Positions 10,816 through 28,250 of a stretch of 64,000 nucleotides of DNA are shown here, in pieces. Below the pieces are notes generated by a model. The model did not search any database, was not told the origin of the DNA, and saw nothing but the letters and a program-made list of their open reading frames with translations. This DNA is from a virus, in the IMG/VR virus record IMGVR_UViG_3300047497_000079, positions 17,637 to 81,636 of that record; one strand, given 5' to 3'. Position 1 is the first letter of the stretch. The number at the start of each line of letters is the position of its first letter. Position numbers and translations under genes: made by a program.

Positions 10816-10822
10816 GTGACAG

Positions 10823-12443: not shown

Positions 12444-12444
12444 C

Positions 12445-13524
12445 ATGTTTTTCCCGGTCGGCATCTTTGGGGGGACGACGCCATATTCAAATACTTGGAA
12501 TGAAATTTCTTCTTATCCCATAAGTGTAGGTGGTCTATCTGCTGTTACACTTTCTAACAATTATGTAATAGCCTTTGGTGGAAATTTCCCGATTACTCCA
12601 GAGACTTATGCAAGTGTGTCGACTTCTACTACATCATATGGTTATTCTGTTGTCACCAATTCTTGGAGTGAATTGGCAAACGTACCTTTGGGTATATGTT
12701 TCAATGGAGTAGCTGTTCTCTCCAACAATAGTGTTGTTACTGTAGGCGGTTCTTGGTCTAACTCGGGATATTATTCAGGAAGCTCCGCTTATTGGAATTA
12801 TTATTCTTTACTAGAACCGACAAGCAATTGTTACTTATATAGTCCTAGCGCAAATTCTTGGAGTGCATTCTCATCTTATCCAATTGCAGCAACGGGTGTA
12901 ACTTGTTCAACACTTTTAAATGGCAATGTTTTAGCTGTAGGCGGTGATGCTTGGAGTTACAGTCAAAATTTATCAACCCAAGTCAATTATGTTAATGAAA
13001 CCTTTATCACTCAGTCGTGTTATCTTCTTAATGGTAACACTTGGAATAGTGCAGCATCTTACCCAATTCCTATTACGAATGCAGGTTCAGCAAGATTTCC
13101 AAATGGTTCCGTTTTAGTGGTCGGTGGATTTACAAATAACTCAATAGCTACGACATCATGTTATCGATATGATCCGTCACCAAATACGTGGACACAAGTA
13201 AGCCATTTACCATTATCGCTTGGCTTTGTAAGTTGTTCACCTTTAAGAGATGGTACTGTATTAGCAGTTGGTGGTGCTTCCAGTAAAACGACAGCACCTT
13301 CGTCTGTGACATATAGATTTACTCCAAGCAGCAATACTTGGAGTAATGTTTCATCCTGCCCTTTAGGCGCAGGTGCCGTAGGGCTTACCAATTTAGCTAA
13401 TGGTTCCGTTATCGCCGTCACCGGTGCTACAGGATTTGATTTAGCTGTGCAGGAAGATGGAAACGACGATGTATCCTGTACTTTAGTTTCTTCCGTGACA
13501 AACTTGGGTTATAGATATGATTGA
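12445..13524 (+). CDS. Kelch-repeat beta-propeller protein, putative fibre-associated or receptor-binding
   Basis: About six repeats of NG.VL.VGG...CY.Y.P..NTW....YP. Confidence 0.8.
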   Translation: MFFPVGIFGGTTPYSNTWNEISSYPISVGGLSAVTLSNNYVIAFGGNFPITPETYASVSTSTTSYGYSVVTNSWSELANVPLGICFNGVAVLSNNSVVTVGGSWSNSGYYSGSSAYWNYYSLLEPTSNCYLYSPSANSWSAFSSYPIAATGVTCSTLLNGNVLAVGGDAWSYSQNLSTQVNYVNETFITQSCYLLNGNTWNSAASYPIPITNAGSARFPNGSVLVVGGFTNNSIATTSCYRYDPSPNTWTQVSHLPLSLGFVSCSPLRDGTVLAVGGASSKTTAPSSVTYRFTPSSNTWSNVSSCPLGAGAVGLTNLANGSVIAVTGATGFDLAVQEDGNDDVSCTLVSSVTNLGYRYD

Positions 13525-13536
13525 ATAAATAATTGC

Positions 13537-14160
13537 ATGAATAATATCATTCCACTTCTCACTTTTGCATGGGCATGTGATCAAATCCTCGTTTACGAGG
13601 GTTCCGAATATACCGACGATCCCGATGACGCCGGTGGTCCCACTAAATGGGGTGTGACGCTCGAAGATTACCGCGAGAACATCAATCCACAGGGCACCGC
13701 GAATGACATCAAGAATTTGTCACGCGATACCGCTATTCAAGATTATAAGCTGCATTACTGGGACCCCATAAAGGGAGACGACCTGCCATTCTATATGGCT
13801 TTCCTCATCTTCGATTTCGGGGTCAATTCCGGTATCGGTCATGCCGTGAAATATGCTCAGGCCGTTATGAACATCACTCAGGACGGTTCCGTAGGCCCTG
13901 TGTTTGAAGCGGCCGCCGCCGCGTTCAATCCTACGACTTTCATCGAACAGTTTTCCGCTGCCAAGGAAACGTTTTATCGAGGTCTCGGTAACTTCTGGAA
14001 ATATGGATCGGGATGGCTGTCTAGGGCCGAGACCTCCAAGGCCCTTGCTACGGCAATTGTCACCGAATTCGGTGCGGCCAAAGTCACCCCTGATGATACG
14101 ACTACGGAGGACACTCCGGACGTCGCTCAAGGCGACCTCCTGGTTAAGAGTACTCAATAA
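13537..14160 (+). CDS. Glycoside hydrolase family 108 lysozyme with peptidoglycan-binding domain
   Basis: EG.EY.DDPDDAGGPTKWGVT, FDFGVNSG, GWLSR. Confidence 0.85.
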   Translation: MNNIIPLLTFAWACDQILVYEGSEYTDDPDDAGGPTKWGVTLEDYRENINPQGTANDIKNLSRDTAIQDYKLHYWDPIKGDDLPFYMAFLIFDFGVNSGIGHAVKYAQAVMNITQDGSVGPVFEAAAAAFNPTTFIEQFSAAKETFYRGLGNFWKYGSGWLSRAETSKALATAIVTEFGAAKVTPDDTTTEDTPDVAQGDLLVKSTQ

Positions 14161-14189
14161 AAAAGCGGCGGTATCACCCGCCGCTTTTT
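14159..14189. terminator. Bidirectional intrinsic terminator
   Basis: AAAAAGCGGCGG-tatcac-CCGCCGCTTTTT between convergent genes. Confidence 0.85.
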
Positions 14190-14207
14190 GTTTGCGCGTC
14201 AGCTCGT

Positions 14208-14468
14208 CTAATTCATAACACGCCGGCGGGATCCATTGGAATTCGCCCCGCCTTTCCTTCCTGCCGCGGCCGCTAAGTCCCTATTGAGGGAAAACGAGCG
14301 CTTTTCGTTGGATACGTTCAACCCACCCTTCCGTCCAGCCCTCACCGCCAAGTCCCGATCCTTGGAAAACGCGCGATCTTTTGCTTTGACCGCATGTCCT
14401 CCCATCGCTGCAATTTTTCTCCGTTTTTCGAGGTCCATGGACGCAAAGCCTCTGCTCTTCATGATCAA
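14208..14468 (-). CDS. KGG-repeat general stress protein
   Basis: RGFASMDLEKRRKIAAMGG followed by two FS.[DN]RDLA..AGRKGG repeats. Confidence 0.85.
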   Translation of the reverse strand: MIMKSRGFASMDLEKRRKIAAMGGHAVKAKDRAFSKDRDLAVRAGRKGGLNVSNEKRSFSLNRDLAAAAGRKGGANSNGSRRRVMN

Positions 14469-14535
14469 CTATCCTTTCGATTAGCTTGCCGGATCAATAA
14501 ATACTCGAAGCAAGTTCGAGCGAGAACTCAAATAT

Positions 14536-15276
14536 ATGACGAAACCTACCAACCGGGAAGAGCTAAAGTGTTATGCGCTAAGAGCACTTGGTCAACCTGT
14601 TATTAACGTAAATGTGTCTGATGATCAGTTGGAGGACCGTCTCGACGATGCCTTGAGCATCTTCCGGGAATGGCATCATCTTGGGACGGTGCGTGGCTAT
14701 CTGAAATACCAGATGCAGGCCCAGGATATCACTAACGAGTATCTCACTCTCCCTGAAAACGTTCAGGAGGTCACGCGGCTGCTAAACTACGATACATCCT
14801 ATGGAGCGGCTCTGTTTTCACCAATCCCGTACGCCAAATATACATATATGTATAATTACAATTTCGGCGGCGGCGCGGGGCAGATCTATGGATATTCGGT
14901 CGCTCTATCGAACCTGGAGCAGCTCGACGAGCAGCTCGGCCAGAAGATGGATTTTCAGTACAATCGCTATAATAACCAGCTCTTCATCGAGACCGATTGG
15001 GTCGACTTTCAGGCTGGGAATTACCTCGTCATGGAGGCTTATTTCACCCAGGACGTGGAAGGCATGTATGGCGACATCTGGCTTCAGCGCTATTTCACGG
15101 CGCTCGTTAAGAAACAGTGGGGCAACAACCTCGGAAAGTATTCGAACATACAGCTCTTGAACGGAATCACGTTCAACGGTGAGCAGATCATGGCTCAGGC
15201 CGAAGCCGACATCGAAAAACTGACAGAGGACCTGGAGAAGAAGTTCACGCTTCCGGCTATTGGTTTGATTTACTAA
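14536..15276 (+). CDS. gp13: Neck protein gp13
   Basis: REELKCYALRALGQPVINVNVSDDQLEDRLDDAL; WLQRYFTALVKKQWGNNLGKY. Confidence 0.92.
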   Translation: MTKPTNREELKCYALRALGQPVINVNVSDDQLEDRLDDALSIFREWHHLGTVRGYLKYQMQAQDITNEYLTLPENVQEVTRLLNYDTSYGAALFSPIPYAKYTYMYNYNFGGGAGQIYGYSVALSNLEQLDEQLGQKMDFQYNRYNNQLFIETDWVDFQAGNYLVMEAYFTQDVEGMYGDIWLQRYFTALVKKQWGNNLGKYSNIQLLNGITFNGEQIMAQAEADIEKLTEDLEKKFTLPAIGLIY

Positions 15277-15668
15277 TGCTTGGATTTGCGCAGTTTGTAA
15301 GGGAAGAGATCGGTGACCCTTTAAACTCCGATCACATGACACATCACTTGCCTCATTCGCCTTATGGTGATCATTCGAACCCCAGAGGCTTGCTCAAGCT
15401 TTTTGCTGCCACACGGGCCAAAGCTACCGCGCGTAGGTCTGAACCTGAGAACGTGCCTTTGCACCGTATACGGGCGACCAATAAATACATTGGCAAAAAG
15501 CGTGGCAAGTACGACGCCTTCCCCGATCACGAAGAGCCGGTCCTCGCGAAGGTTCTAGGCACTTATCATATCCTCGACGGTCATCATCGTATTCATAGAG
15601 CCGTCGAGAAACGTGCTAAGTCCGTTCGGGCTCATGTCTACCATGTGAAGAAACACGAGGTAGAGTGA
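15276..15668 (+). CDS. ParB/Srx-like domain protein with capsid-targeting-like N-terminus
   Basis: Starts MLGFAQFVRE; EPV....GTYHILDGHHRI.RA....V.AHVY. Confidence 0.65.
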   Translation: MLGFAQFVREEIGDPLNSDHMTHHLPHSPYGDHSNPRGLLKLFAATRAKATARRSEPENVPLHRIRATNKYIGKKRGKYDAFPDHEEPVLAKVLGTYHILDGHHRIHRAVEKRAKSVRAHVYHVKKHEVE

Positions 15669-16090
15669 TGAAGTCTTTTCATCGATTCGTTGTTGAAGTT
15701 AATGAGTTTGAGCGCTTGCATCCGCGCGACGATAATGGACAATTTACGGATAAAATCATACAGGGCATGAGGGAGCTTGACCGCCATTTTGATAGAGCAG
15801 GTGATTACCTAGAGAGGAAATATGGTAATAGTTTCAGGAAAGCGATGGATAAGGAGATAAATCGCCCTACTTCGGATGCTATGAAAGATCTGGCTCTATC
15901 AATGGTTCCAGGATATGGTCTCTATAAACAAGCAAAGAAGTTCAGTCAAATAGCAAATGCTAGAGGTTATCGCTGGTATTATCCTAAATACGATCCTATG
16001 TTGGATAAACGGCTTACTCCAAAAGAGAGAAAAAAACTTTTGAAAGGCAAACAGTCTGGGTTGTCAAAAAAGCCGACATTAAGAAAATAA
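15668..16090 (+). CDS. Basic hypothetical protein with capsid-targeting-like N-terminus
   Basis: MKSFHRFVVE start; HPRDDNGQFT motif; Lys/Arg-rich tail. Confidence 0.6.
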   Translation: MKSFHRFVVEVNEFERLHPRDDNGQFTDKIIQGMRELDRHFDRAGDYLERKYGNSFRKAMDKEINRPTSDAMKDLALSMVPGYGLYKQAKKFSQIANARGYRWYYPKYDPMLDKRLTPKERKKLLKGKQSGLSKKPTLRK

Positions 16091-16091
16091 T

Positions 16092-16910
16092 ATGCCTTTA
16101 AATCCTTATTTTCAGAACTACACTAGCCTAAATGAGATGAATCTCTTACGTGCGCTTACCGAAGAGGCCATCCAGATCGGTGGCATCCTCGTCTATTACA
16201 TGCCGCGTACGGCTGGTTATGTTGATCCCCTGCTAGGGGAAGACTCGCTGTCCGAATACCCCTTGTGCGTCGACATGGAAGCCTTCCCGGAGACCATAGA
16301 GAACTGGGGCGGCACAGGCGAACTCATCTCACGCTTCACCGGCCTCACGTTCGACGAGAAGCTTACTCTATCCATCGCGCAGCACCGCTGGGCGCAAGAG
16401 CGCAACGAGATGCTCTATTTCACGACGGCCGAGATGATCACCTACGCCGGCACGAACCTGTTCACGCTCACCGGGGGTGTCGAACAGTCGTCCTCGGGCT
16501 ATGTGCTGCCGAACGTCCCGAAGGAAAACGATCTCATCTTCATCCCGACCTTCAACCGGATCTTCGTCATCAACCACGTCGACCGTGACAAGGACTTCTT
16601 CCCCCTTGGCGTGCTGCCGACATACACCCTTACCTGCGGTGTATGGGATTACTCATCCGAACGGCTGTCTACGGGCTTCACGGGCATCGATATCTTCCAG
16701 ACCCAGTATTCGACCGATGTCCTCTCACAGGGTCAGATCATAGATGCTACGGGCAACAACGTCCTCACGTCCTCGGGCGATCTCCTCATCGACAATACCG
16801 ATACGCTCGACAACGATCCTTTCGCGGGTAACGACGAGATCCAAGGCACGGCAGATGTGTCGGTTATCTGCGATGAAGACAATCCCCTGGCCGGGAAGAA
16901 AACGTATTAA
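16092..16910 (+). CDS. gp14: Neck/head completion protein gp14
   Basis: LNPYF..EAIQIGG..VYYMPR..DPLLGED; PKENDLIFIP; Y.LTC..WDYSSE. Confidence 0.9.
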   Translation: MPLNPYFQNYTSLNEMNLLRALTEEAIQIGGILVYYMPRTAGYVDPLLGEDSLSEYPLCVDMEAFPETIENWGGTGELISRFTGLTFDEKLTLSIAQHRWAQERNEMLYFTTAEMITYAGTNLFTLTGGVEQSSSGYVLPNVPKENDLIFIPTFNRIFVINHVDRDKDFFPLGVLPTYTLTCGVWDYSSERLSTGFTGIDIFQTQYSTDVLSQGQIIDATGNNVLTSSGDLLIDNTDTLDNDPFAGNDEIQGTADVSVICDEDNPLAGKKTY

Positions 16911-16924
16911 AAGGAATAACGGCA

Positions 16925-17269
16925 ATGAATAAAAAAATGGAGCAAACTGCTGCCAGACACAAGTCGAGAGCATTGCATCACCACAGAGAATATGTGGAAC
17001 ATAGTATTTTAGCTGATCATCATAAAAAACAAGCAGAACATTTTCAGCAAAAAGCACAACATCACTGGGACAAAGCTCATGCTTCTGCTTATGGAACTAA
17101 AGAATATGAACAACATTTTCGTGAAGCGAGAGCACATGAACATGTAGCTGGCTATCATTACAACCATTCTAATGATGCCAGCAACAAGGCTAGTAATCAT
17201 AATATTCTGTATAAACATTATCGTAAGGCCCATGCAACCTTGATGCGGTCTGCTAAAAAACTGAAGTGA
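16925..17269 (+). CDS. His/Ala-rich helical-repeat protein
   Basis: AAGGA RBS; periodic His residues (HHHRE, ADHHKKQAEH, AHEH). Confidence 0.65.
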   Translation: MNKKMEQTAARHKSRALHHHREYVEHSILADHHKKQAEHFQQKAQHHWDKAHASAYGTKEYEQHFREARAHEHVAGYHYNHSNDASNKASNHNILYKHYRKAHATLMRSAKKLK

Positions 17270-17287
17270 TGTTCATATAAATAGTAG

Positions 17288-18223
17288 ATGTTTGGCAACG
17301 CCTACTTCTTCAACGGCCTCCTCCGCATCTATATCGCCGTGTTCGGTAAGATGTTCGACGACATCCGAATCCAGCGTAAGGACGCCTCGGGGAATACAAT
17401 CCAGGAGCTGCCCGTCTCGGTTTCCTATGGTCCCAAGGAAAAGTGGCTAAGAAGGATCACCGAAGATCCGAACATGACCCAGCAGCTCGCATTCATTACG
17501 CCTCGCATGGCCTATGAGATGACGGGCCTTCAGCACGTTCCCGAACAGCAGACATCCCAGCTCCAGCGCCTCACGAACGTTACATCGGGCCAGGAGATGC
17601 TTTCCCAGTACAAGTGGACGACCTACAAGCTCAATTTCGCCCTGTACGTTCAGGCGAAGAACGAGATGGACCATTTCAACATCGTCGAGCAGATCATCCC
17701 GTTCTTCACTCCAGACTGGACGATGAAGGTCAACACCGTCCCGGCCATGGGCTACGAAGACAAGGTTTCCACGACCCTTGACAATCTCACGATTGACAAG
17801 ATGTACGAAGGAGATCTCGATTCCAAACGGGTAATTACCTGGACACTTAATTTTACGATGACGGCTCGCTTCTATGGGCCGATCTATCAACAGGGTCCAA
17901 TCCGCCGCGTGCTGATAGACCTTCTTGTTCCGGGTGGTACGGATCCCATCACCGTCGAAGACATCGTCGACACACCCCGCTCCGTGCGTATCACAGTCAC
18001 CCCTGGTGAAACGGCCAATGGCTACCCGACGACCGACCCCAACCAGTCCAAACCCTGGAACGAAATCAACGCTTCGGATGTGACGATGGACGGCCAGCAA
18101 GCTTGGGCTTACATCACGAAGATCATGGAATATGATGATAACAATCAGTTCAATCCGAATACCCTTACGGACCAGCCCGTAGGAACATTCCCCGTCGAAG
18201 CTATTCTCCGCACGGAAGAGTAG
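17288..18223 (+). CDS. gp15: Tail sheath stabiliser/terminator gp15
   Basis: MFG..FFN..R.YIAVFG.MFDDI; VSYGPKEKW; PRMAYEM; EQIIPFFTP; TATAAATA promoter 4 nt upstream. Confidence 0.92.
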   Translation: MFGNAYFFNGLLRIYIAVFGKMFDDIRIQRKDASGNTIQELPVSVSYGPKEKWLRRITEDPNMTQQLAFITPRMAYEMTGLQHVPEQQTSQLQRLTNVTSGQEMLSQYKWTTYKLNFALYVQAKNEMDHFNIVEQIIPFFTPDWTMKVNTVPAMGYEDKVSTTLDNLTIDKMYEGDLDSKRVITWTLNFTMTARFYGPIYQQGPIRRVLIDLLVPGGTDPITVEDIVDTPRSVRITVTPGETANGYPTTDPNQSKPWNEINASDVTMDGQQAWAYITKIMEYDDNNQFNPNTLTDQPVGTFPVEAILRTEE

Positions 18224-18240
18224 AATTCGGCGTTTTGGCG

Positions 18241-18269
18241 TTGCCAAAATCCCACATGGTTACTATACT
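18241..18269 (+). promoter_or_regulatory. Sigma70-type promoter
   Basis: TTGCCA-N17-TATACT upstream of ORF 18300. Confidence 0.6.
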
Positions 18270-18299
18270 GATCCCCTGTTAAATCGTCAGGGAAATGCC

Positions 18300-18500
18300 A
18301 TGCCTCGCTCAAATCACAAGTCTGCTAATCAGTCTCCCGAAGGCCGGTTCCTTCAAATGTTAGAAGCCGAAATGAGCCGGGAGCTTCTCCGGCGTGGGGT
18401 TCCTGAGGATACCGTCATAGATATATGCAACACGGCTTATAGGAATGCCGTTACCAAGTTTTCCGGCGGTCGCTGCCTTGAGCTGACGGCCCTTTCGTAA
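18300..18500 (+). CDS. Hypothetical protein
   Basis: ORF downstream of the sigma70-like promoter. Confidence 0.5.
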   Translation: MPRSNHKSANQSPEGRFLQMLEAEMSRELLRRGVPEDTVIDICNTAYRNAVTKFSGGRCLELTALS

Positions 18501-18504
18501 GGAG

Positions 18505-18798
18505 GTGGTGATGGCGATGAAGGTTATTGAAACGAGACGGCGCGGGCCGTTTGGCAAGCTGATGAAAGGGCTGTTTATCGCGGGCAATCTAGTTATGTTT
18601 TTCGTTACCGTGGGCTTGTTCTGGGCGTTTGAACACGCGAAGCTCGATCCTGCGAATATCCACGATACCAAGCTTCAAGACACACCATCGGCCGCTACGC
18701 TGGTCTTTACAATTCCTGCGTGGTTCGCGGTTTTCGTTGTCACGGGGATACTTGCTTTGATCACCCGAGGCCAAAAGGTGTATGTGCAGGAAACTTGA
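18505..18798 (+). CDS. Small membrane protein (2 TM)
   Basis: AGGAGG RBS; RRRGPFGK followed by two hydrophobic segments, ending LITRG. Confidence 0.7.
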   Translation: MVMAMKVIETRRRGPFGKLMKGLFIAGNLVMFFVTVGLFWAFEHAKLDPANIHDTKLQDTPSAATLVFTIPAWFAVFVVTGILALITRGQKVYVQET

Positions 18799-18800
18799 TC

Positions 18801-18874
18801 TGGTTCACCCTCATGGATTCGAACCACGGTTTTCTGATCCAAAGTCAGACGTCCTACCGCTAGACGAAGGGTGA
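18801..18874 (-). tRNA. tRNA-Gln(TTG)
   Basis: Cloverleaf on -: acceptor TCACCCT/AGGGTGA, anticodon arm TCTGA-CTTTGGA-TCAGA, GGTTCGAATCC, encoded CCA. Confidence 0.9.
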
Positions 18875-18886
18875 TCTGAATAAATG

Positions 18887-18919
18887 AAACCCGGTACAGT
18901 TTCCTGTACCGGGTTTTTT
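18887..18919 (+). terminator. Intrinsic terminator hairpin
   Basis: AAACCCGGTACAG-tttc-CTGTACCGGGTTTTTT. Confidence 0.75.
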
Positions 18920-18951
18920 GTTGCCTAGCACGTCGATGCGAGTGCGCCGTG

Positions 18952-19317
18952 TTACTCGGTGATGGCACTCATCATTTGCTGCGCTTGAAGGCTTTCTTCA
19001 ATAGCCGATTGCACCGCGCCGATGAACTGTGATTTTGCATCCTCACGGGCGTTTTCCGGGGCCGTGGACAGGATGAAGCCCGTGACAATTGCCAGAGCCG
19101 CTAGGCACACATTGTGGCCGTGCTCAGCGTCGTCGGGCAGGAGATCGATGATCTTCTCGGCGAGTTCTTCGACTTGAGTCTCGGCGTCGCCTTGGGGACC
19201 GGGGACGCCGGTATCGGAAGCGAAATCTGCAAGGCCCGCGCCGATGCTGTTGAGAGTAGTGTCACCCGCTTCAACTTGCATATCGCCGGGGAAAGCCTGA
19301 TCAAGAGAGTTCATCAT
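18952..19317 (-). CDS. Acidic hypothetical protein
   Basis: MMNSLDQAF... downstream of GAGGA RBS. Confidence 0.6.
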   Translation of the reverse strand: MMNSLDQAFPGDMQVEAGDTTLNSIGAGLADFASDTGVPGPQGDAETQVEELAEKIIDLLPDDAEHGHNVCLAALAIVTGFILSTAPENAREDAKSQFIGAVQSAIEESLQAQQMMSAITE

Positions 19318-19550
19318 GAGAGTATCCTCTGGGTTAGTGGTAGGGCGAATATGGATAGTACGCCCTACCATTCCAGGGATTTAGGCAGCTTTTGAGCTAG
19401 TAACCTTAACGGGACAAACTACGTCTTTGCAGGTTACCATATAACTTGTTTTGCCCCACTGACCAGATTTGATGTGTCTACAGACATAAAAAATCAAAAT
19501 GTCTTCAGAAAAAGGGGAAACTTCAAGGATCTTGATCGGTTCGCCATGTT

Positions 19551-19817
19551 TTATGTCGCGCCGGTCGCTGCCCAGGTATAAGTGACTTCCGCTCCAATAC
19601 CAAATCCTTGCTCTGTGGCGATTTCAACGACGATATCCTTCAAGATGTAGGCCATATCGTCGAGCGCATCATACAAATTATAGATCTCAGTCTGAAACTC
19701 GTTCTCCCACCGGCTCGTCAGCTCCTCCAACTTGCTGGAAATGTTATCCTGTGTGGTCCTGACGCGCTTCTCCAATTCGAGCAGTGTCTCTGTGTTATGC
19801 TGTATTCTGAACTCCAT
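19551..19817 (-). CDS. Hypothetical coiled-coil protein
   Basis: Overlaps the integrase 3' end; has RBS. Confidence 0.55.
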   Translation of the reverse strand: MEFRIQHNTETLLELEKRVRTTQDNISSKLEELTSRWENEFQTEIYNLYDALDDMAYILKDIVVEIATEQGFGIGAEVTYTWAATGAT

Positions 19818-21090
19818 ACTTCATGACAAAGGCTTCCTCCCTAAATTTAATGATCATTTGTTCCCATTTGTTTAACGCTTCAACTTTTTCATCGAGATAC
19901 TCATATAAGTTGTAAACTGCCGCAATCTGAGAATGAGCGACAACTCCCCCAGCAAGCGTATGATCGAGGATGGACTCGGTAACTTCGCGGGGAACTCCCA
20001 ATTTAGGGCGTGCAAAAGTTGTCGAGAAAGAACGGCGAAAATCATGCGGGGTCCAGTCTTCTGCCCATAATAGCTGCTTCTGTTCGCTAAGGGTGCCACA
20101 CCGCCTTTTGAGTTCGAACAATCCTTTTGAAAAGCCAGAGAACGGATTCTTATCGTTCCCCTCTGCCGGAAAAACATAAGGCGATGTTGTCCGCTCTATC
20201 GTCTTCATGATTTCGAATGCCGTTGGCGAAAGTGGTAATAATAGCTTCTTACCAGGGGATCGCTGCTTGGAATGTACAAAGATTTGGCGATCCTCTAAAT
20301 GAACGTTCTCCCATAGCAACTGCGTTATTTGTCCGCGTCTTGCACCAGTGAGCATAAGTAAGCGAACAATGTCTCCGTAATGTTTACCCTCATTCGACAT
20401 CTCTTCAGCAGCAAGATAGATTAATCCAAGTTCCGAGTTAGACACAACTCTGCTTCTTGGAATGTATTCGGAAACTTTTTTGATCTTAGCAGCGGGAGAC
20501 TCCTTTAATTGTTTTGCGTCGACTGCCCACGAAAAGAAACGCTTGATGTCCGAGACTGCATGATTTGCGGCACCATTTTTACCCTTACTCTTGAGATCAT
20601 CAATGATCTTCTGGATGTCCTGTTCGGTAACAGCGTTGATATCTTTTTCACCAAGGGAAAGACAAAATTTCCTATTCAACGTCCAGGATAACTCTTGAAC
20701 TGATCGTGGTCGCATTTTTGGTTTTGCATAGTTTTCGATATACTCATCTACTACCGCTGAGAAGGTTTGCTTTTCCTCGGGAGTAGACTCCATGACCTGT
20801 GATTTGGGTCGGTATTCACCATCGGTAATGCGAAGCTTAATTGTTTTTGCCTCGGCTCTGGCGTCTGCCAGTTTCATTTCGGGATAACGACCTACCGTGG
20901 CTTTCACACTCTTACCTTCGGGTGTATGGCCTACCACAATGTATGCAATGGCCCCTTTTTGAGACACACGCACTCCGAAACCTTTTAAGGTTTTGTCCCA
21001 AATGAAATATTGCTTACCCGTTTTCTTAAGATTTTGCAGAATTGTCTGTTGCAGATCCCGCCTATTATTATCCATCTTTTCGTTCTTCAT
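19795..21090 (-). CDS. int: Tyrosine recombinase/integrase with arm-DNA-binding N-terminal domain (P4-like)
   Basis: WDKTLKGFGVRVS..G; TGARRGQI (catalytic R); HDFRRSFST; LDH; VYNLYEYLDEK (catalytic Y). Confidence 0.95.
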   Translation of the reverse strand: MKNEKMDNNRRDLQQTILQNLKKTGKQYFIWDKTLKGFGVRVSQKGAIAYIVVGHTPEGKSVKATVGRYPEMKLADARAEAKTIKLRITDGEYRPKSQVMESTPEEKQTFSAVVDEYIENYAKPKMRPRSVQELSWTLNRKFCLSLGEKDINAVTEQDIQKIIDDLKSKGKNGAANHAVSDIKRFFSWAVDAKQLKESPAAKIKKVSEYIPRSRVVSNSELGLIYLAAEEMSNEGKHYGDIVRLLMLTGARRGQITQLLWENVHLEDRQIFVHSKQRSPGKKLLLPLSPTAFEIMKTIERTTSPYVFPAEGNDKNPFSGFSKGLFELKRRCGTLSEQKQLLWAEDWTPHDFRRSFSTTFARPKLGVPREVTESILDHTLAGGVVAHSQIAAVYNLYEYLDEKVEALNKWEQMIIKFREEAFVMKYGVQNTA

Positions 21091-21149
21091 ATTTCACTCC
21101 TTGCATCAACGAGTTTCATATGGGATTACCCCTTCCCTCCGTCAAGAAA

Positions 21150-21403
21150 AAAGGTAGCAGAAAGGTAGCAAATTTGGGCATGGTGCTGGCGGATTTTGCG
21201 GGAGCTTAATGGACAATAAGAACCGTCTTGTTCAGCAAAATCAACGATATATAGGATATTCTCAGATTTTAGCGGACATTAATTAACCAGATTGTGGATC
21301 TGGGGGTCGCCCGTTCGAGCCGGGCCAGCGGTACCAATGAAATCAATGACTTAGATCGAACTTAAAAAAGGTAGCGAAGGAAAAGGTAGCAAAAAAGGTA
21401 GCA
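21150..21403 (+). mobile_element. attP site: tRNA-His 3'-half core flanked by arm repeats and an IHF box
   Basis: Core 21287-21336 CCAGATTGTGGATCTGG..GCCCGTTCGAGCCGGGC..ACCA; AAAGGTAGC[AG] twice on the left and three times on the right; AATCAATGACTTA at 21341 fits the IHF consensus. Confidence 0.85.
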
Positions 21404-21526
21404 AAACCTGGTGGCTTCCACCGGACGTGTCTGGACAATTTACCATCCTGCCAGTTTTAGTTTGACGGCTTTTGGCGTCCTTCCCATCTCCAGGGTTGTT
21501 GGTTTAGGCCATTTCGGAGATGCCCT

Positions 21527-21769
21527 GTGGAACGCGCCTTGCGTTTAAAAGAAGTACAAAAGTACATTCCTTATTCTCGCTCTCATATCTACCAGCTTAT
21601 GTCTGAGGACAAGTTTCCACGGTGCCGTAAATTGCGGCCAGGGGGTAGAGCTGTCGTGTGGGACGAAAACGAAATCCAACTCTATAAAAATGGTAGTTGG
21701 CAATCGGCACCTACTGCTCTTCAAAAAAGTCATAGGAATACTTCTTCAAACGATCCACGAGCTGCTTGA
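21527..21769 (+). CDS. alpA: AlpA-family excisionase/recombination directionality factor
   Basis: LRLKEV....SRSHIYQLM..FP....GGRAVVW. Confidence 0.9.
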   Translation: MERALRLKEVQKYIPYSRSHIYQLMSEDKFPRCRKLRPGGRAVVWDENEIQLYKNGSWQSAPTALQKSHRNTSSNDPRAA

Positions 21770-21943
21770 CAACAGTCTGCGATTTGATTTATTAAAATTG
21801 TGCTCACTGCTTGAAGAGGTGTTGGTACTCCTCCTCCTTGCGCCTCTCCTCTTTAGGTTTCCCCACACTTGAGCACTGGGAGTCTGAACTTCATCCAGCC
21901 GTTCAGACTCCCTTCTCTGTTTTCGCTCTTCATAAATATTCCT

Positions 21944-22639
21944 ATGATGAGCTTACATACCTTCAATTACTTCATTACCGAGATGGCAGCACCTGCCACT
22001 CAGCTATGTCTCCCCAAGCGGAATACGGGTGATTATCAACCAGCCTCCTTCTATATTGCCAAGAAAGCTCAGACGATAACGACTGCGACAGGTCCTGTTC
22101 GCGCTCTGGCTGGTGATTACATCGTCAGCGGAAAGAAAGGCCGGCAAGTACTCAAGCCGGCAAAGTTCTTCCAGCTCTTTAAGATCGTGCAAAACCCAAC
22201 GGCCCTTCCTCCAAAGGGTCTTTCTTCGACTCAACCTGACCCCAAGCACCGCAAGGAAGAGATATCGAGCCTCCTCGACGACATCGTTACTCATCACCTT
22301 GATGGCCTCCTCACCAGTAAGGAGGCAACGAAGAAGGCGTGGGACATCGGCTCTAATCAGATAGAGTTCGGCAAGCGGCTAACAGCAGAAGCTGCTAGGC
22401 GGGCAGATTTTCTAAAAAGCCGCCTGCATTTCATGACGGGTAAAGACCGTGATTTTGAAGACTTCATCAGGAAGCTTTCACGAACCCATCCGGCCGTCAT
22501 CTTTAAGCTTGCCGACGACTATACAGGCTCAAAGGTAAGCCGTTCTGTTCCCGTTGCTCTTGAAGCTATTCGCAAGGAATACGAGGAGCGCACGGCTGAT
22601 ATGATGGCCCATCTCATGCATCAGTTTCACTCTCATTAA
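21944..22639 (+). CDS. Hypothetical protein with capsid-targeting-like N-terminus
   Basis: MMSLHTFNYFITE; TAAATA-N5-ATG; contains A.AGDYIV.G..G...LKP..F...F. Confidence 0.65.
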   Translation: MMSLHTFNYFITEMAAPATQLCLPKRNTGDYQPASFYIAKKAQTITTATGPVRALAGDYIVSGKKGRQVLKPAKFFQLFKIVQNPTALPPKGLSSTQPDPKHRKEEISSLLDDIVTHHLDGLLTSKEATKKAWDIGSNQIEFGKRLTAEAARRADFLKSRLHFMTGKDRDFEDFIRKLSRTHPAVIFKLADDYTGSKVSRSVPVALEAIRKEYEERTADMMAHLMHQFHSH

Positions 22640-22789
22640 AAATTCGTATACTCCTCTTGCCAAGGAGTACTGTTATGAATATAGATTGATCGGCAGGTAC
22701 CAGCCCGTGGCCACCTGCTGGGATCCGGCTGGTTTTCCGCATGACCAGACCGGATCCTTCTTGTACTCTTGCCGTGCATAAATAGTTGC

Positions 22790-23047
22790 ATGGCCAAAAC
22801 CTTCAAAACATTCATTCTTGAGAATAAAGCTCGCCTCGACGAGATCTCGCCCGCCTCATACATCCATTGGCATAACGCTACGTTAGATGCCGATGAACGC
22901 GGTGATGAGAAACGGGCCGCTTACGCCCACAAACGCATGACAGCCGCCTACAATCGTCCTCACCCCAACTCCTTTGCCGGTAAAGCCAAGAAAGTTGTCG
23001 ACAAGGGCCGTGCCGTTGTTCGCCTCGCCCGTAAAAAAAAAGTCTAA
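22790..23047 (+). CDS. Basic protein with capsid-targeting-like N-terminus; probably joined to the downstream ORF through an A9 slip
   Basis: MAKTFKTFILE; TAAATA-N5-ATG; ends in an A9 run. Confidence 0.7.
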   Translation: MAKTFKTFILENKARLDEISPASYIHWHNATLDADERGDEKRAAYAHKRMTAAYNRPHPNSFAGKAKKVVDKGRAVVRLARKKKV

Positions 23048-24003
23048 CTAACTCTTACGCCCTTGATGAACGTGACGATTCATCTTCCGAATATTGGGCA
23101 AATAAATATGTCGATCATCTTGGTAAGGCGGCCGAACATGCCCGCCACATGGATCGACATAAGTCTGGACCCGCGTTTGACAGAGCCCAGGACAAATACT
23201 GGGCTGCACAAGACCACAGGGACTATGCTCTAAGCCGCTGGAAAGCAGCACAGTACCGCACAGACCCCAAATCAATCTCCGGTAAGATCACGCGAAAGAC
23301 CAAGGCTCTCAAACGCCTGGGTCAACGCAAGCTTAACAAGTATCTATCTCGATCCGAGAGCTTCCTCGTTTCCGAGGGTCTGTTCGACTGGCTGCGGGGA
23401 CGCCCGCGCGATCAAGACATCGGCCCTCTCGAACACGAAAAAGTCGTTGGTGTCGTAAGCGACATCATCCATTCGTTGCAGCATCCTGAGGGATATCCAG
23501 ACAGAAAAAGCTTCCTCAAACACGTCAAGGCCGAATTAGAAGGCCGGATGCATCACGAAGACGAACCCGCGAAGAAAGAGGAATTAATTAACTTATTACA
23601 GTCTCTTGACGCCGAGATCCGGAGCGAAAATGCCGTTCGATTTCACTACTTGCTGGTGAATCCAGAGATCCAGGACATCAAACTCAAGGCCCGTTACGAC
23701 CGCGATCTGATCTTTTGCATCAACAAGCGCGGAAACATCTTCGTCGCTCGCGTAGCGGACGTCCACGGCGAGGGAAAACAATCCCTGGGAAATCTGACGA
23801 ACGCCATTTCACACATGCACCATGCGTGGAATGGCGACACGATGTCTCCGATTGTGAATTGGGGTTACATCGATTGGCACCCCGACGAGGGCTATTCTTT
23901 CTATTTCCTCGACAACAAGTACGACGGTCTCGTCCGCGCCTGGATTAGGGAAATGAAGGCTGCGGGCATACAAAACGAGACAGAATACAAATTAAATAAA
24001 TAA
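23035..24003 (+). CDS. Multi-domain protein; 5' part lacks its own start codon
   Basis: Frame open from 23035; ERDDSSSEYW..RDYALSR..AA..R.DP.S matches ORF 24008; first ATG only at 23149. Confidence 0.65.
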   Translation, partial: KKSLTNSYALDERDDSSSEYWANKYVDHLGKAAEHARHMDRHKSGPAFDRAQDKYWAAQDHRDYALSRWKAAQYRTDPKSISGKITRKTKALKRLGQRKLNKYLSRSESFLVSEGLFDWLRGRPRDQDIGPLEHEKVVGVVSDIIHSLQHPEGYPDRKSFLKHVKAELEGRMHHEDEPAKKEELINLLQSLDAEIRSENAVRFHYLLVNPEIQDIKLKARYDRDLIFCINKRGNIFVARVADVHGEGKQSLGNLTNAISHMHHAWNGDTMSPIVNWGYIDWHPDEGYSFYFLDNKYDGLVRAWIREMKAAGIQNETEYKLNK

Positions 24004-24007
24004 CAAC

Positions 24008-24316
24008 ATGCTTTCATTCTACTCATTTCTCGTCGAACGCGACGACGCATCCACCGATTACTGGCACCAGCGGGCTCATGCGGCTATCTCAAAGGGCTAT
24101 GACCTCCGTCGCCAGGGCGGTTCTCGCGCCGACATCGAAAAGGCCCATAGGGACCGAGATTACGCCAAATCCAGGCATGCAGCGGCTTTAGCCCGGCCTG
24201 ATCCACGATCAGCCGAAACAAAGACGGCCAAGCGTGCCGCCGCCCAAGCGCGGCTGACCAAGCGAAAATCGACATCGAGCAAGGTTAAGCGTTTCGTGCG
24301 GCGCTTTACGGGCTAA
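24008..24316 (+). CDS. Basic protein with capsid-targeting-like N-terminus
   Basis: MLSFYSFLVE; TAAATA-N5-ATG; Arg/Lys-rich. Confidence 0.7.
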   Translation: MLSFYSFLVERDDASTDYWHQRAHAAISKGYDLRRQGGSRADIEKAHRDRDYAKSRHAAALARPDPRSAETKTAKRAAAQARLTKRKSTSSKVKRFVRRFTG

Positions 24317-24561
24317 GTTACAGGAGGCTTCGGCGTCCTTTTTGCTTTTGGCGGGTTGGCAACCACGCTCGTCGAAATATCCCCACAATCTTTGATCACC
24401 TTGCACGCTGGACAGTCGTGCTGGCTTTTATGTTTCAAGAGCTGAAGGGCCTTTTTCACGTCTTGCTTGTTCAGCATCACGATGGCCTTGGCTTCCTTCC
24501 ATTCCTTCGTGGAGCAGCTCGATTCTCGAAGGGCGTCCCACAACTCATCTAAATCGGTCAT
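24313..24561 (-). CDS. Hypothetical protein with HxCxxC motif
   Basis: AGGA RBS; HDCPAC. Confidence 0.55.
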   Translation of the reverse strand: MTDLDELWDALRESSCSTKEWKEAKAIVMLNKQDVKKALQLLKHKSQHDCPACKVIKDCGDISTSVVANPPKAKRTPKPPVT

Positions 24562-24655
24562 TTCGTTGTAAAATTCCTGATTGGTTATTTTTGGCTTGCT
24601 CGGCGATAAGTGGTCATTTACTATCCTTTTGTCACCCTAACATAGGAGTAAAACG

Positions 24656-24778
24656 ATGAGCAGAGTAGTTTCTGTACTTTTCGTTCTTGGACTTCTCACG
24701 GCCGGTGCTACAACGGCGGGAGCACAGTCAACGGGCAAAAAGTGTTGCTGGGCATGGGACTCGCGTTGTTGTCCATAA
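24656..24778 (+). CDS. 40-aa secreted Cys-rich peptide
   Basis: AGGAG RBS and an upstream sigma70-like promoter; MSRVVSVLFVLGLLTAGATTAGA|QSTGKKCCWAWDSRCCP. Confidence 0.65.
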   Translation: MSRVVSVLFVLGLLTAGATTAGAQSTGKKCCWAWDSRCCP

Positions 24779-24919
24779 TGCCGGATATAACGGACAACCC
24801 CTGGTTCTCACTGGTTACTCAATACACCCCTTTCTTTGTGGGGGAGATGTGTGTATTGATCGCCGTTGTAGTCGGCTATATTGCTATGATGGTGTGGATC
24901 GGGTTGGACAAATCCTGAT

Positions 24920-25165
24920 ATGACGGATGAAGAAGACTATAAGCTTACTCAAAAGATAGTCGGGCAAGTCAAACAACTTTTGACGGGTGCGCCTCGTGGA
25001 ATACAAGGTGTGGTGCTTGCTGAGTTGTTAGCAATCTGGCTCGCGGGACATTTCGGTGATGAAACGCTTCGCGATGAACTCATAAAAATGCATGTCGCTC
25101 AAGTTCGGGAATTCATACCCATTATTGAACCTGAGATACTTGCCTCAATTAGCCAGATTGCATAA
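24920..25165 (+). CDS. Hypothetical protein
   Basis: IQG.VLAELLAIWLAGH motif. Confidence 0.6.
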   Translation: MTDEEDYKLTQKIVGQVKQLLTGAPRGIQGVVLAELLAIWLAGHFGDETLRDELIKMHVAQVREFIPIIEPEILASISQIA

Positions 25166-25169
25166 AAAA

Positions 25170-25251
25170 GCGGACGTGGCGGAACTGGTAGACGCAAGGG
25201 ACTTAAAATCCCTCGATCTCGGTCGTGCGGGTTCGAATCCCGCCGCCCGCA
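25170..25251 (+). tRNA. tRNA-Leu(TAA)
   Basis: GCGGACGTGGCGGAACTGGTAGACGC, anticodon arm AGGGA-CTTAAAA-TCCCT, long variable arm, GGTTCGAATCC; no encoded CCA. Confidence 0.9.
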
Positions 25252-25268
25252 CATACTAATACTGATCC

Positions 25269-26915
25269 CTACTTTCCAAAATATGTTGACAGCTCGTCGA
25301 AATGGACGGGAGCGTAATTGGTCATTTCCATCGACACGCATGCATAACGTGGATCTTTCAGCGTCTTGTAGTGCAGGTGGCCATGCACACAGCGGGTGTA
25401 TCTTCCATCCTCAAACTCTTCGGTGTGTACGGGCATATGAGCCGCGACTATCCCTTCTTCCTTAAAGTGCCGCCAGTACATCACCTTTTCGAAGTAGTCC
25501 ATTAGGGACGTTCCCTTCAGGCTATCGTGATTACCGATACAGAGACGTTTCTTTCCCTTTAAGCGGCGCGCAATGTTCTTGGTAAAATTCTGCCAGTCCA
25601 TTGTCACGTCCCCGAGGAAGTAGACGTGGTCCACGTCGTTCACACGCGCGTTGTGTTGGGAGATCATGAACTCATCCATCTCCTCGACGGTTTTGAACCC
25701 TGGCCGTAAAAGGCTGCCGTCGTCCCGATAGAACGGTGACGTTATCATTTTGGCGTGCCCGAAGTGATGATCGGCCGCGAAGAAGATGTTCACGGTATAA
25801 CAGGTTCCGATCAATGACCGCATCGCATCGACGCTGGTCTGCGAACCCGTCCGTCCGCGCATAAAATTGAGGACCTCTTGCATTGGGTTCTGAGAATCCA
25901 GAGCTGCGAAGGCGATGGTTCGGATGTCGCGGGGGACATCCTTAAGCACCTCTACGGCGAATGTTTTCCTGTCCACATGGCGGGCTTTTTCGAGAAGAGA
26001 GGCGATCTGAAGGGCTATGTTTCTCATCTGCTCCTCAACGGCGTTCCGATATGTCACGATGTGCTCCTGGTCCTCCTCACTGAGCAACGGCAACACGTCG
26101 TCGATCTCACCCATCAAGATCAAGGCAAGCACGTTCTTTTCGTAGACCGTAGAGTCTTTTGCCCTGTGTTTGAGGATGTACTCTTCGCCCTTACATTTCA
26201 TAAGCTGACGTAGGGGTTCATGTTCAAAATCCGGATCGAACATGAGCACATACCCTTCTTGCCCCTTCAGCTCACGAACGTGGGAAAGAAAGGCCGCGCA
26301 TTCACCCCACTGGGTCTCCATGGCTGATACCCGATCAACACCAATGTGCCTCGCGAATAAATCCAGTCCTTTATAGGAAAGATAGCCACCCGTATTGATG
26401 AAACGAGCCCCTATGAGGGTCAACTTAGGCTCTTCGTACCTAATGACAATTCTGTTGGAAGGGGCCGTAAACTCAAAGATTGGAGTCACGCCTGTCTCAA
26501 TGATATCCGTACACGCCTTAATAAAACCTGGTGTCGCACACAGTTCCTCGGCCATTAGAGAGGTGTCGGTAATCCCAGCCCGCGTCATGAGTCTGCATTT
26601 GCCCATAACCATTGCGGCATGAACCATCGACCCGTCCAGCTTATCCATAATCACATGGGGCTTAGACAGGTCGATCATACCAGGCTGAGTTTCTGCCCTC
26701 TCTCCGATGTTGAAGAACTTGTGAAAGGGCCGGCCGATGATCTTTCCATTACCGTCAAACTTGATTCCCCGGAATTCACGGCGAATAGGATCGTCGAAAC
26801 TATCGCTCAGGCCGATCTGATAATCGACGGAGATATAGCCCGGTGCCCTGTGTATACGAAACTCCGTGCGGCCTTCTATGGCAGGAAGAACATCATTTAA
26901 GGATTCAATAAGCAT
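25269..26915 (-). CDS. T4 Rnl1-type RNA ligase fused to a calcineurin-like metallophosphoesterase
   Basis: REFRGIKF, RPFHKFFN, KLDGSM, EGYVL; C-terminal DHHFGH, LGD, GNHD, HGHLH. Confidence 0.88.
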   Translation of the reverse strand: MLIESLNDVLPAIEGRTEFRIHRAPGYISVDYQIGLSDSFDDPIRREFRGIKFDGNGKIIGRPFHKFFNIGERAETQPGMIDLSKPHVIMDKLDGSMVHAAMVMGKCRLMTRAGITDTSLMAEELCATPGFIKACTDIIETGVTPIFEFTAPSNRIVIRYEEPKLTLIGARFINTGGYLSYKGLDLFARHIGVDRVSAMETQWGECAAFLSHVRELKGQEGYVLMFDPDFEHEPLRQLMKCKGEEYILKHRAKDSTVYEKNVLALILMGEIDDVLPLLSEEDQEHIVTYRNAVEEQMRNIALQIASLLEKARHVDRKTFAVEVLKDVPRDIRTIAFAALDSQNPMQEVLNFMRGRTGSQTSVDAMRSLIGTCYTVNIFFAADHHFGHAKMITSPFYRDDGSLLRPGFKTVEEMDEFMISQHNARVNDVDHVYFLGDVTMDWQNFTKNIARRLKGKKRLCIGNHDSLKGTSLMDYFEKVMYWRHFKEEGIVAAHMPVHTEEFEDGRYTRCVHGHLHYKTLKDPRYACVSMEMTNYAPVHFDELSTYFGK

Positions 26916-26921
26916 TACTTC

Positions 26922-27311
26922 CTACTTCGTATCGAACGGAGGTGTGGATTTTATTATCTCTTTGACGCTTTGCCTCATTTTGCGGTCACGCAGGGCTTCT
27001 TTATTCTGATACCGGGCCGTTGCGATCCTCGTCAACATAGCCTCTCGCAAATAGGGGTCTTTTATAGTCTGTGCCCACAGCGTATGTTGATCGAGTTTTT
27101 TCTCCTTGGCCTCAATGTCCTTAATTGTGTCAGTAGAATCGGCGGCGTGTTCTCCCCACCACCGTGGATCCATTTCCTCTCTCAATACGTCGAGGATTTC
27201 AGTTGTCGAGTATTTGGAGAGGGGCGAATCATTATTCATCGGAGGAACCCGTAAGAAGTAGAGTGCCAGGAGTAATATTATTACTCCTAGCGCCCATACG
27301 TAGAGAATGGT
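26922..27311 (-). CDS. Membrane-anchored hypothetical protein
   Basis: N-terminal TM segment MTILYVWALGVIILLLALYFL. Confidence 0.5.
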   Translation of the reverse strand, partial: TILYVWALGVIILLLALYFLRVPPMNNDSPLSKYSTTEILDVLREEMDPRWWGEHAADSTDTIKDIEAKEKKLDQHTLWAQTIKDPYLREAMLTRIATARYQNKEALRDRKMRQSVKEIIKSTPPFDTK

Positions 27312-27553
27312 CATTGTAATGGAGAAGCCGCCGATGCAGCTTCGTTTTGAAGCTCCTCCATGTAAATGTGTGCAACGTCTCCCATAAATTTGAAGAACTC
27401 TGGTATGGATGGTGTTTTGGACACGGCGAGATAGATCGAAAGCGTACACACCGCAAGTGCCGTTAATTGAACGTCGGGCTTTTCTTGCTCAATAAGCTTC
27501 AGAATATTCTGACAAAGATCTCTCGCCGCATAAGTTTCGTCGTCGTAGACCAT
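27311..27553 (-). CDS. Hypothetical protein
   Basis: Tightly packed ORF in the leftward gene block. Confidence 0.55.
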   Translation of the reverse strand: MVYDDETYAARDLCQNILKLIEQEKPDVQLTALAVCTLSIYLAVSKTPSIPEFFKFMGDVAHIYMEELQNEAASAASPLQ

Positions 27554-27554
27554 A

Positions 27555-27860
27555 TTAATGCTTTGTCTGTCCTGTTTCTACCAACCCTGCAAAGAAGTCA
27601 TTCGCGGCTTCCGCCGCCTCATCCGGTGTCATTGAAAAAACGTCATATGCTCTGGCACAGAAGTCGAGATAATGTTCCCTCGAAGGCACCTTTGCGGCTA
27701 TCAGATAAGTATTAGCCGAAGCTGCTATGAATGACGTAAGGGCCGTGACAGGTTTAATGTCAGCACCTATCGCCATTCCAATCATGGTCTGGACGAAGTT
27801 TCTTACGCTGACGGCTTCTTCTTGTGCTTGTTCATGAGTCAATGGCATTTTACTCTCCAT
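27555..27860 (-). CDS. Hypothetical protein
   Basis: Packed ORF with RBS. Confidence 0.55.
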   Translation of the reverse strand: MESKMPLTHEQAQEEAVSVRNFVQTMIGMAIGADIKPVTALTSFIAASANTYLIAAKVPSREHYLDFCARAYDVFSMTPDEAAEAANDFFAGLVETGQTKH

Positions 27861-28250
27861 AGTGTTGACTGTTCCGTGAATATGTGAGGAAGAGAATTTT
27901 CTTAAAGGGCTAATGCACTGTTAACCTTACCTGTTCTGTCCTCTGAAAATGATCCACAAGGCAAAGATCACAAAGGCCGCCCAGGCCATCTCGTGCAAGC
28001 CATCACCAATGGTCATGACGATTTTTCTCCATGTGCAGGTAGTAGCTTCTTAAGCTCAGAGATAAACTCTTTGCGGGCTTCGTCAGCTCGCTGCCAGGCT
28101 TTCTTCGCAGAAACGTCTGATCTATAGTCCAGAAGACCCAATTCGCTATCTGCTATCCACGCCCGCCCGAGCAGGTTTTCGAAATTAGTGAACGCCTTTC
28201 CAAGAGGAGTGGCACAAAACTCGCGCCATTCCTTTACCTCTTTCTCGATA

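Follow-up and report, generated by a model that had tools for sequence, protein, structure and literature searches.

An integrase-attP-excisionase cassette with a host tRNA-His core in the genome of a T4-like phage

We analyzed a 64,000-nt stretch of viral DNA (the window), which covers bases 17637–81636 of the 81,636-bp linear IMG/VR viral contig IMGVR_UViG_3300047497_000079 (CheckV completeness 49%) and carries a cassette consisting of a tyrosine integrase gene (int), a phage attachment site (attP) and a divergent excisionase-type gene (alpA). The cassette is real, complete and host-specific, and it is resident in a T4-like genome. Its anatomy, the intactness of its genes, the exact match of the attP core to host tRNA-His genes and its placement in phage DNA were observed directly; that recombination actually occurs is something we infer. 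Probably, the cassette belongs to the T4-like phage itself, as a resident module for site-specific recombination that is competent for integration. In textbooks, T4-like phages stand for the obligately lytic lifestyle, and the same is assumed in ecology and when phages are selected for therapy. The module is familiar; the type of genome in which it was found is unexpected. Unless stated otherwise, positions are those of the window.

Anatomy of the cassette and its place in phage DNA

The 253-bp attP is located between the divergent genes int and alpA (Table 1). Its core comprises the anticodon stem and loop (GTG), the variable loop, the T arm, the 3′ strand of the acceptor, A73 and CCA of a tRNA-His; tRNA identity ends at 21285 and the 5′ half is absent at the site. 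The whole anticodon stem-loop is contained in the core and is the presumed crossover region; attP sites of this kind in tRNA genes are referred to as the anticodon-loop class. The arm-type repeat AAAGGTAGC is present in five exact copies, all on the plus strand and without any others in the 64-kb window, while 0.22 copies are expected by chance and five copies were obtained in 0 of 100 shuffles. Neither a further exact AAAGGTAGC nor a second copy of the core was found on the whole 81.6-kb contig, over which ARAGORN also detected no tRNA-His. The half tRNA was not among the results of an Rfam search at E ≤ 1, and the fold of the 51-nt core alone was uninformative (z 0.13). Since arm-type sites stand on both sides of the half tRNA, the site is best read as an unrecombined attP and not as attL or attR.

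Int was assigned to PHROG 1 (integrase, E 9e-54) and contains an arm-binding domain (PF13356, Arm-DNA-bind_3, residues 18–92), a SAM-like core-binding region (PF22022, Phage_int_M, and PF14659, residues 109–205) and a catalytic domain (PF00589, Phage_integrase, E 5e-12). In an alignment of 29 sequences, R251, R352, H377 and Y393 occupy invariant columns, and K278 and H349 columns that are nearly so. With the catalytic residues as well as the arm-binding and core-binding domains all present, Int belongs to the P4-type tyrosine recombinases. A sequence search against the PDB matched the core-binding domain alone (2kiw, E 0.0012) and left the catalytic residues uncovered. The product of alpA matched Phage_AlpA (PF05930, E 1.9e-14) and PHROG 66 and 2790 (excisionase) and is presumed to be the recombination directionality factor.

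These results bear out most of the original prediction for this DNA, which had been made from the letters and open reading frames (ORFs) and had described int and alpA as divergent genes around attP (both now Pfam-supported), arm repeats at the same five positions on both sides of the core, a consensus site for integration host factor (IHF) at 21341, intact catalytic R, HxxR, H and Y residues, and an attP rather than attL/attR configuration in genuine T4-like phage DNA. The half tRNA-His without a 5′ half was likewise found, but the core is one base longer than the claimed 21287–21336.

From its virion and packaging core genes, the phage can be assigned to the T4 superfamily. It encodes gp15 (T4-gp15_tss, PF16724, E 4e-53, 17288–18223), a portal protein (Portal_T4, PF07230, E 7e-137), a T4-type large terminase (PF03237 with PF17289), a baseplate wedge protein (PHROG 438) and neck proteins. 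The left flank of the cassette is gp15, and its right flank consists of genes with the late-promoter-like motif ATAAATA of this phage, which is present at 21932, next after the alpA terminator, and also ahead of gp15. The right-flank genes from 21932 onwards begin with the leader M.SF..F..E, which is common to about nine other ORFs of the window; several follow ATAAATA. Sequencing depth was taken from Logan contigs of two moss-metagenome runs which contain the phage; they are apparently one data set filed twice and probably represent the source sample. These contigs tile positions 14000–28000 with zero mismatches and depths of 7.7, 7.44, 6.53 (19397–21338), 7.0 (21309–21715) and 8.6. Two stretches, 17559–17970 and 21716–21749, are without cover, which is evidence in neither direction. 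In run X3, the bin with the core has a depth of 5.1, and no conclusion is based on this value. As support for residency the Logan depth is weak but consistent. The flanks, the cassette's own terminators on both sides and the even depth place it in phage DNA, and the evenness over cassette and flanks speaks against the chimeric assembly that the earlier reading of this DNA had considered.

Host match of the core and related attachment sites

To search for possible hosts, a 42-nt piece of the core was compared with the genomes of 185,579 species, each represented by a single genome. Exact matches were obtained in five contigs of four genomes only, namely Rhodomicrobium sp. Az07, a Rhodomicrobium metagenome-assembled genome (MAG) with two contigs, and two uncultured Alphaproteobacteria MAGs. 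Three of the five matches are complete tRNA-His genes (loci L003, L004 and L006), each identical to the window over 51 of 51 positions, and the remaining two are half tRNAs belonging to other elements. Identity over 51/51 positions thus extends to the tRNA-His sequences of Rhodomicrobium sp. Az07 and of three MAG contigs. The matching tRNA-His genes carry G1-U72 and A73, a combination which we take to be the G-1-less alphaproteobacterial type. The core thus predicts an alphaproteobacterial host with a Rhodomicrobium-type tRNA-His, in agreement with the host group named in the original prediction. As a control, the tRNA genes of the phage itself were compared with the four core-holding genomes, to which tRNA-Leu was 82–85% and tRNA-Gln 79% identical. 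Because the core is 100% identical to the host sequence while true phage tRNAs reach 79–85%, the half tRNA is to be regarded as a host-matching att core and not as a decayed phage tRNA. We also considered that an element might have inserted into a tRNA-His gene of the phage and left this half behind; this was rejected on the same identities and because there is neither a 5′ half nor a second copy of the core. A Cre/lox-like role of the site in genome cyclisation is unlikely, too, since the core is host tRNA sequence.

The complete tRNA-His genes of L003 and L006 are followed by arm-type repeats other than that of the window. Since half tRNAs of other elements and other arm repeats occur there, tRNA-His is a hot spot of insertion in this group of bacteria. 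As further observations on these loci, the contigs L002, L003, L005 and L006 carry at least three different sets of arm repeats (GGAACGCCAGCGGAAC, GTCGGAACC and others) after tRNA-His or around half copies, and one MAG holds a full and a half tRNA-His copy on separate contigs.

The cassette was then compared with 80 metagenome loci and eight host-genome loci encoding Int relatives of ≤35% identity. The metagenome scan relied on one generic peptide pattern, which returned only such relatives and missed the contig of the 46% identical relative P0002. In four of the loci (L060, L082, L095 and L025), a half tRNA-His begins at the same tRNA position as that of the window and is located just upstream of int, with the direction of int transcription leading away from the half tRNA. 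Of these, L082 is an island of 10.4 kb (9797–20242) in the integrated state, with a complete tRNA-His at attL and a half copy by int at attR, while L060 has the attP form, in which arms flank the half tRNA on either side. The IHF consensus after the tRNA-His end is fitted by L060, by attL of L082 and by L006; L005 is off at the first base.

With these islands the window shares the P4-type (Arm-DNA-bind_3) domain architecture, an adjacent and divergent int, direct arm repeats adjoining the start of int and, after the tRNA end, an IHF-like ATCAATGACTTAG box. The same start of the half tRNA, placement of int and IHF-like box indicate that the attP of the window is built like working tRNA-His att sites. 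In contrast, the Int proteins are merely 28–31% identical and fall into a separate tree clade, the arm words of the islands are GGTAAGCA or GGGAAGCA instead of AAAGGTAGC, and the island cargo is about 10 kb of bacterial DNA (cNMP-TIR effector, resolvase), whereas that of the window would be a whole T4-like phage. Judged from these comparisons, the likeness concerns architecture and does not reflect close kinship. The nearest Int relatives (P0002 and P0003, 46–56% identical) are encoded on tiny contigs, and a FastTree tree with 116 integrases groups the window Int with P0002 alone, on a long branch. As a side observation, L082 looks like a small defence island, with genes for a cNMP-binding and CAP12/Pycsar-type TIR effector, a serine resolvase and an HTH_36 protein.

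The attP of phage lambda comprises about 250 bp, with two and three arm-type sites around the core and a site for a bending protein beside it; lambda Int is heterobivalent with an arm-binding N-domain, and the directionality factor is a small helix-turn-helix protein. The window is alike in the size of attP, the two plus three arm sites and the IHF-like box; its Int, too, has an arm-binding N-domain, and its presumed directionality factor is a small helix-turn-helix protein. Unlike in lambda, int is transcribed away from attP, the core is part of a tRNA gene, the directionality factor is of the AlpA type, and there is no immunity region nearby.

Among cultured phages, the Caulobacter phage Cr30, a T4-like transducing phage, is likewise an alphaproteobacterial T4-superfamily phage with a tyrosine recombinase, and its gp15 is 35% identical to that of the window. 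Cr30 is the only one of the five nearest cultured relatives with an annotated integrase (KF301602.1, 71923–72771; locus L242, 2424–3272), located beside the gene of the late sigma factor gp55. This protein (AGS81037.1, 282 aa) differs from the window Int in consisting of the catalytic domain only, without an arm-binding domain, and identity is 21% over 131 residues. No tRNA-like att site was detected within 3 kb of the Cr30 integrase gene by Rfam at E ≤ 1, a weak negative, since this search missed the half tRNA of the window as well.

The closest analogue of the cassette, as far as the available part of the source describes it, is the combination of int and attP in T7-like cyanophages. P-SSP7 and S-TIP37 carry an int and an attP identical to host tRNA-Leu; integration needs both int and attP, is rare and gave no lysogens (Shitrit et al. 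2021, PMC8776855). A related case of integrase and attP was described for T7-like pelagiphages (bioRxiv 10.1101/410191, available in part). According to these texts, the window phage resembles the cyanophages as a member of a classically lytic family with an isolated int and an attP that copies part of a host tRNA exactly, with no evident repressor and no known prophages. Differences to the cyanophages as described there are that the window phage is T4-like and targets tRNA-His instead of tRNA-Leu, that arm repeats flank its attP core on either side and an AlpA excisionase accompanies it, and that integration of the cyanophages is experimental while that of the window phage is deduced.

Integration, lysogeny and capture

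Taken as an integration module, the cassette would work as follows. The five AAAGGTAGC arm sites, together with the inverted repeat in the anticodon stem of the core, would serve as binding sites of Int, and a host bending protein would sit at the IHF-like box. The attP would then recombine with the identical 51-nt stretch in the tRNA-His gene of a Rhodomicrobium-like alphaproteobacterium, whereby an intact tRNA-His would be restored at attL from the phage-borne 3′ part. In the integrated form, the alpA end would be located beside the tRNA and int beside the displaced half copy at attR; excision would be directed by AlpA. The complete domains and catalytic residues, the lambda-like attP with two plus three arm sites and the core identity of 51/51 support such a function. 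Integration could result in stable lysogeny or, as in T7-like cyanophages, in rare transient integration during lytic infection, and we keep both outcomes in view.

Several observations weigh against integration competence. The cassette is carried by one genome only, and in the FastTree tree the window Int stands outside the cluster of tRNA-His-targeting integrases. The attL/attR junctions looked for in response to the original prediction were not found in metagenome, viral or Logan contigs: A pattern of core plus P′ arm gave 0 matches in metagenome contigs, a pattern of the arm triplet gave 10 matches in viral contigs, all of which were coding tandem repeats and were rejected, and the Logan contigs show no joint at the core, with the limit that contigs cannot reveal rare junctions. 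For the right-hand join of the cassette (21716–21749, 34 nt), the original assembly is the only source, as none of the listed Logan contigs covers it. Finally, the intact state may simply reflect recent capture. In this respect, the GC content of int (0.44) has to be compared with the phage range (mean 0.498, sd 0.037, 32 long ORFs) and with host loci and related islands (0.54–0.63); int falls inside the phage range and under the host islands, which makes it less likely that it was acquired very recently from a GC-rich island of the host.

A true temperate lifestyle, in which a T4-like phage of about 165 kb forms stable lysogens reversibly integrated at a Rhodomicrobium-like tRNA-His via a lambda-style Int/AlpA/IHF attP, appears unlikely to us. 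It would place the repressor or switch on the unsequenced half of the genome or in an unrecognised gene, and AlpA would excise the prophage upon induction. Our estimate for stable lysogeny was raised by the presence of an excisionase alongside int and attP, which is sensible only if the integrated state is later left. The fully elaborated attP, with its two plus three arm sites and IHF-like box, also speaks for it, and about 51% of the genome is unseen. The estimate was lowered because no prophages and no repressor were found. On the 81.6 kb, which correspond to about 49% of the genome, no gene of the two repressor families searched, HTH_3 (PF01381) and Peptidase_S24 (PF00717), was detected. 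The genes around the isolated cassette are of the late or virion type, no regulator is located next to it, and its neighbours gave no family matches in Pfam or PHROG.

Host genomes provided no sign of lysogeny either. Of 401 genomes sampled from the order to which Rhodomicrobium sp. Az07 belongs, one contained T4 gp15 (PF16724); it was absent from all four core-holding genomes. The single match is on a 186,208-bp contig (G299:C30) of 28–36% GC, a free phage concatemer with no int and no bacterial flank. It carries 21 tRNA genes, of which a set of nine is repeated at an offset of 150,693 nt, so that the unit genome should have about 150.7 kb; its presence in a bacterial bin is likely a binning artefact. 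Thus, no integrated T4-like prophage was present in the 401 plus four genomes, which are samples and not the whole group. Similarly, PF00589 was found in 0 of 30 related T4-like IMG/VR contigs (12–222 kb, two of them ≥90% complete), these being the longest among the best 80 gp15-related loci. The original prediction calls T4-like phages classically obligately lytic; that they never carry integrases is slightly too strong in the light of Cr30. Its further claim that this phage can lysogenise its host found no support, as neither a repressor nor an att junction nor a T4-like prophage was found. Full-text searches with the phrases "T4-like prophage", "temperate T4-like" or "lysogenic T4-like" returned no paper, and the papers on Straboviridae mentioning integrase and lysogeny are, in their available parts, characterisations of lytic phages.

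It is also improbable that the cassette is an inert or selfish passenger, i.e. an int-attP-alpA region which came from another phage or from a small circular integrative element, entered a hyperplastic gp15–gp16 region through illegitimate recombination and has no role in the life cycle of the phage. For such an origin speak the compact size of about 2.4–3.0 kb, bounded by its own terminators, and a GC content about 5 points under that of the flanks. The same holds for the position: The genes of gp15 and the terminase are kept apart by about 35 kb of accessory DNA (18224–53251) which includes the int cassette and splits the gp15–gp16 junction, while gp13-gp14-gp15-gp16-gp17 are contiguous in all five nearest cultured relatives. 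Moreover, the Int relatives at 80 metagenome and 34 viral loci have no other gene in common with the window phage, and the related T4-like contigs are devoid of integrases. Against this reading, there is no decay, with a core identical over 51/51 positions, five perfect 9-mers and both ORFs intact, and the composition is phage-like, unlike that of the GC-rich host islands with comparable att sites. Moreover, a passenger with a functional int and attP would bring about integration of the entire phage; to be "inert", it would have to remain unexpressed.

An assembly chimera, with a cassette from another replicon of the moss sample threaded into the phage contig, is highly improbable: The Logan contigs do break at both cassette edges (left 19397–19416, 20-nt overlap; right 21715–21750, including the 34 uncovered nucleotides) and in the core (21309–21338, 30-nt overlap), but the left edge is bridged by the overlap of independent Logan contigs, the overlap in the core would be caused by sequence shared with the host tRNA, depth is 6.5–7.0 in the cassette compared with flank values of 7.4 and 8.6, without any mismatch, and two misjoins at one spot would be needed between T4-like genes of the same phage.

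The cassette turns integration of a T4-type genome into a testable question and names Rhodomicrobium as a culturable host genus. If integration takes place, even transiently, T4-like phages could move host DNA, or could disrupt and replace tRNA-linked islands. The presence of an integrase would then be unusable as a simple classifier of temperate and lytic phages, and att cores would become a means of predicting hosts in a phage group for which this has rarely been tried.

Further features of the locus and the phage genome

Table 1. Features of the int-attP-alpA locus, with window positions.
Feature	Position	Strand	Description
terminator-like hairpin	18887–18916	minus	13-bp stem; closes the int-orf88-orf139 unit
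orf139	18952–19371	minus	acidic protein; last gene of the minus-strand unit; GC 0.56 vs 0.44 for int
orf88	19551–19817	minus	small helical protein; 23-nt overlap with the int stop codon
int	19795–21090	minus	431-aa P4-type tyrosine integrase; arm-binding N-domain, core-binding and catalytic domains
P arm	21150–21169	plus	two AAAGGTAGC arm-type repeats (21150, 21161), 11 nt apart, 60–79 nt upstream of the int start codon
attP core	21286–21336	plus	51-nt tRNA-His(GTG) copy, tRNA positions 26–76
IHF-like box	21341–21353	plus	AATCAATGACTTA, 5 nt past CCA; fits consensus WATCAANNNNTTR
P′ arm	21367–21402	plus	three AAAGGTAGC arm-type repeats (21367, 21382, 21394)
alpA	21527–21769	plus	80-aa AlpA/Xis-type helix-turn-helix protein; GTG start, GGAG 7 nt upstream
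hairpin and T-rich tract	21878–21912	plus	12-bp stem; terminates the alpA unit and marks the right end of the cassette

The gene orf88 is probably co-transcribed with int. Its product had no Pfam or PHROG match, and Atlas structure matches were generic helical hairpins only. Membership of orf139 in the cassette is uncertain, and no function was obtained from Pfam, PHROG or an Atlas look-up (scores ≤0.82). The hairpin behind alpA has a fold of −24 kcal/mol (z −4.8), and an equally good one was found in 0 of 200 shuffles. A sigma-70 scan gave no promoter upstream of int or alpA, its output being not above shuffle expectation. A sequence TTAGGCCATTT is present at 21504, 12 nt before the alpA start codon, and has one mismatch to the early-gene motif TTWGYCMATTT of the phage. 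This motif occurs in 12 exact copies, all at contig positions 378–7894 and each between a GC hairpin and a Shine-Dalgarno sequence, and in 19 copies with one mismatch, which are spread over the contig; no hairpin is located ahead of the alpA copy, which we regard as a weak hint. The late-promoter-like ATAAATA was counted 14 times on the plus strand and three times on the minus strand of the window. The leader M.SF..F..E was found at the N-terminus of the unrelated ORFs at 15668, 21947, 22790, 24008, 37750, 46748, 50348, 2933 (minus) and 37713 (minus).

The DNA of 19500–22100 showed no similarity to any of 50,697 phage records, and a scan of viral contigs with the single proteins Int and gp15 found no relatives. 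The closest cultured gp15 proteins are those of the Sinorhizobium phiM12 group, Stenotrophomonas phage DLP6 and Caulobacter phage Cr30 (33–36% identity), and the sole near gp15 among 5.8 billion proteins (71% identity) is encoded on a 2.5-kb contig, so that the phage appears to be a lone lineage. Besides the cassette, the accessory DNA between gp15 and the terminase gene encodes tRNA-Gln, tRNA-Leu, tRNA-Ser, an RNA ligase-phosphoesterase fusion and RtcB. The portal of contig G299:C30 has 528 aa and no intein insert. In the window phage, inteins with LAGLIDADG domains split the portal (1026 aa, 58399–61479; intein at residues ~295–693) and the large terminase (965 aa, 53923–56820; intein at residues ~260–610).

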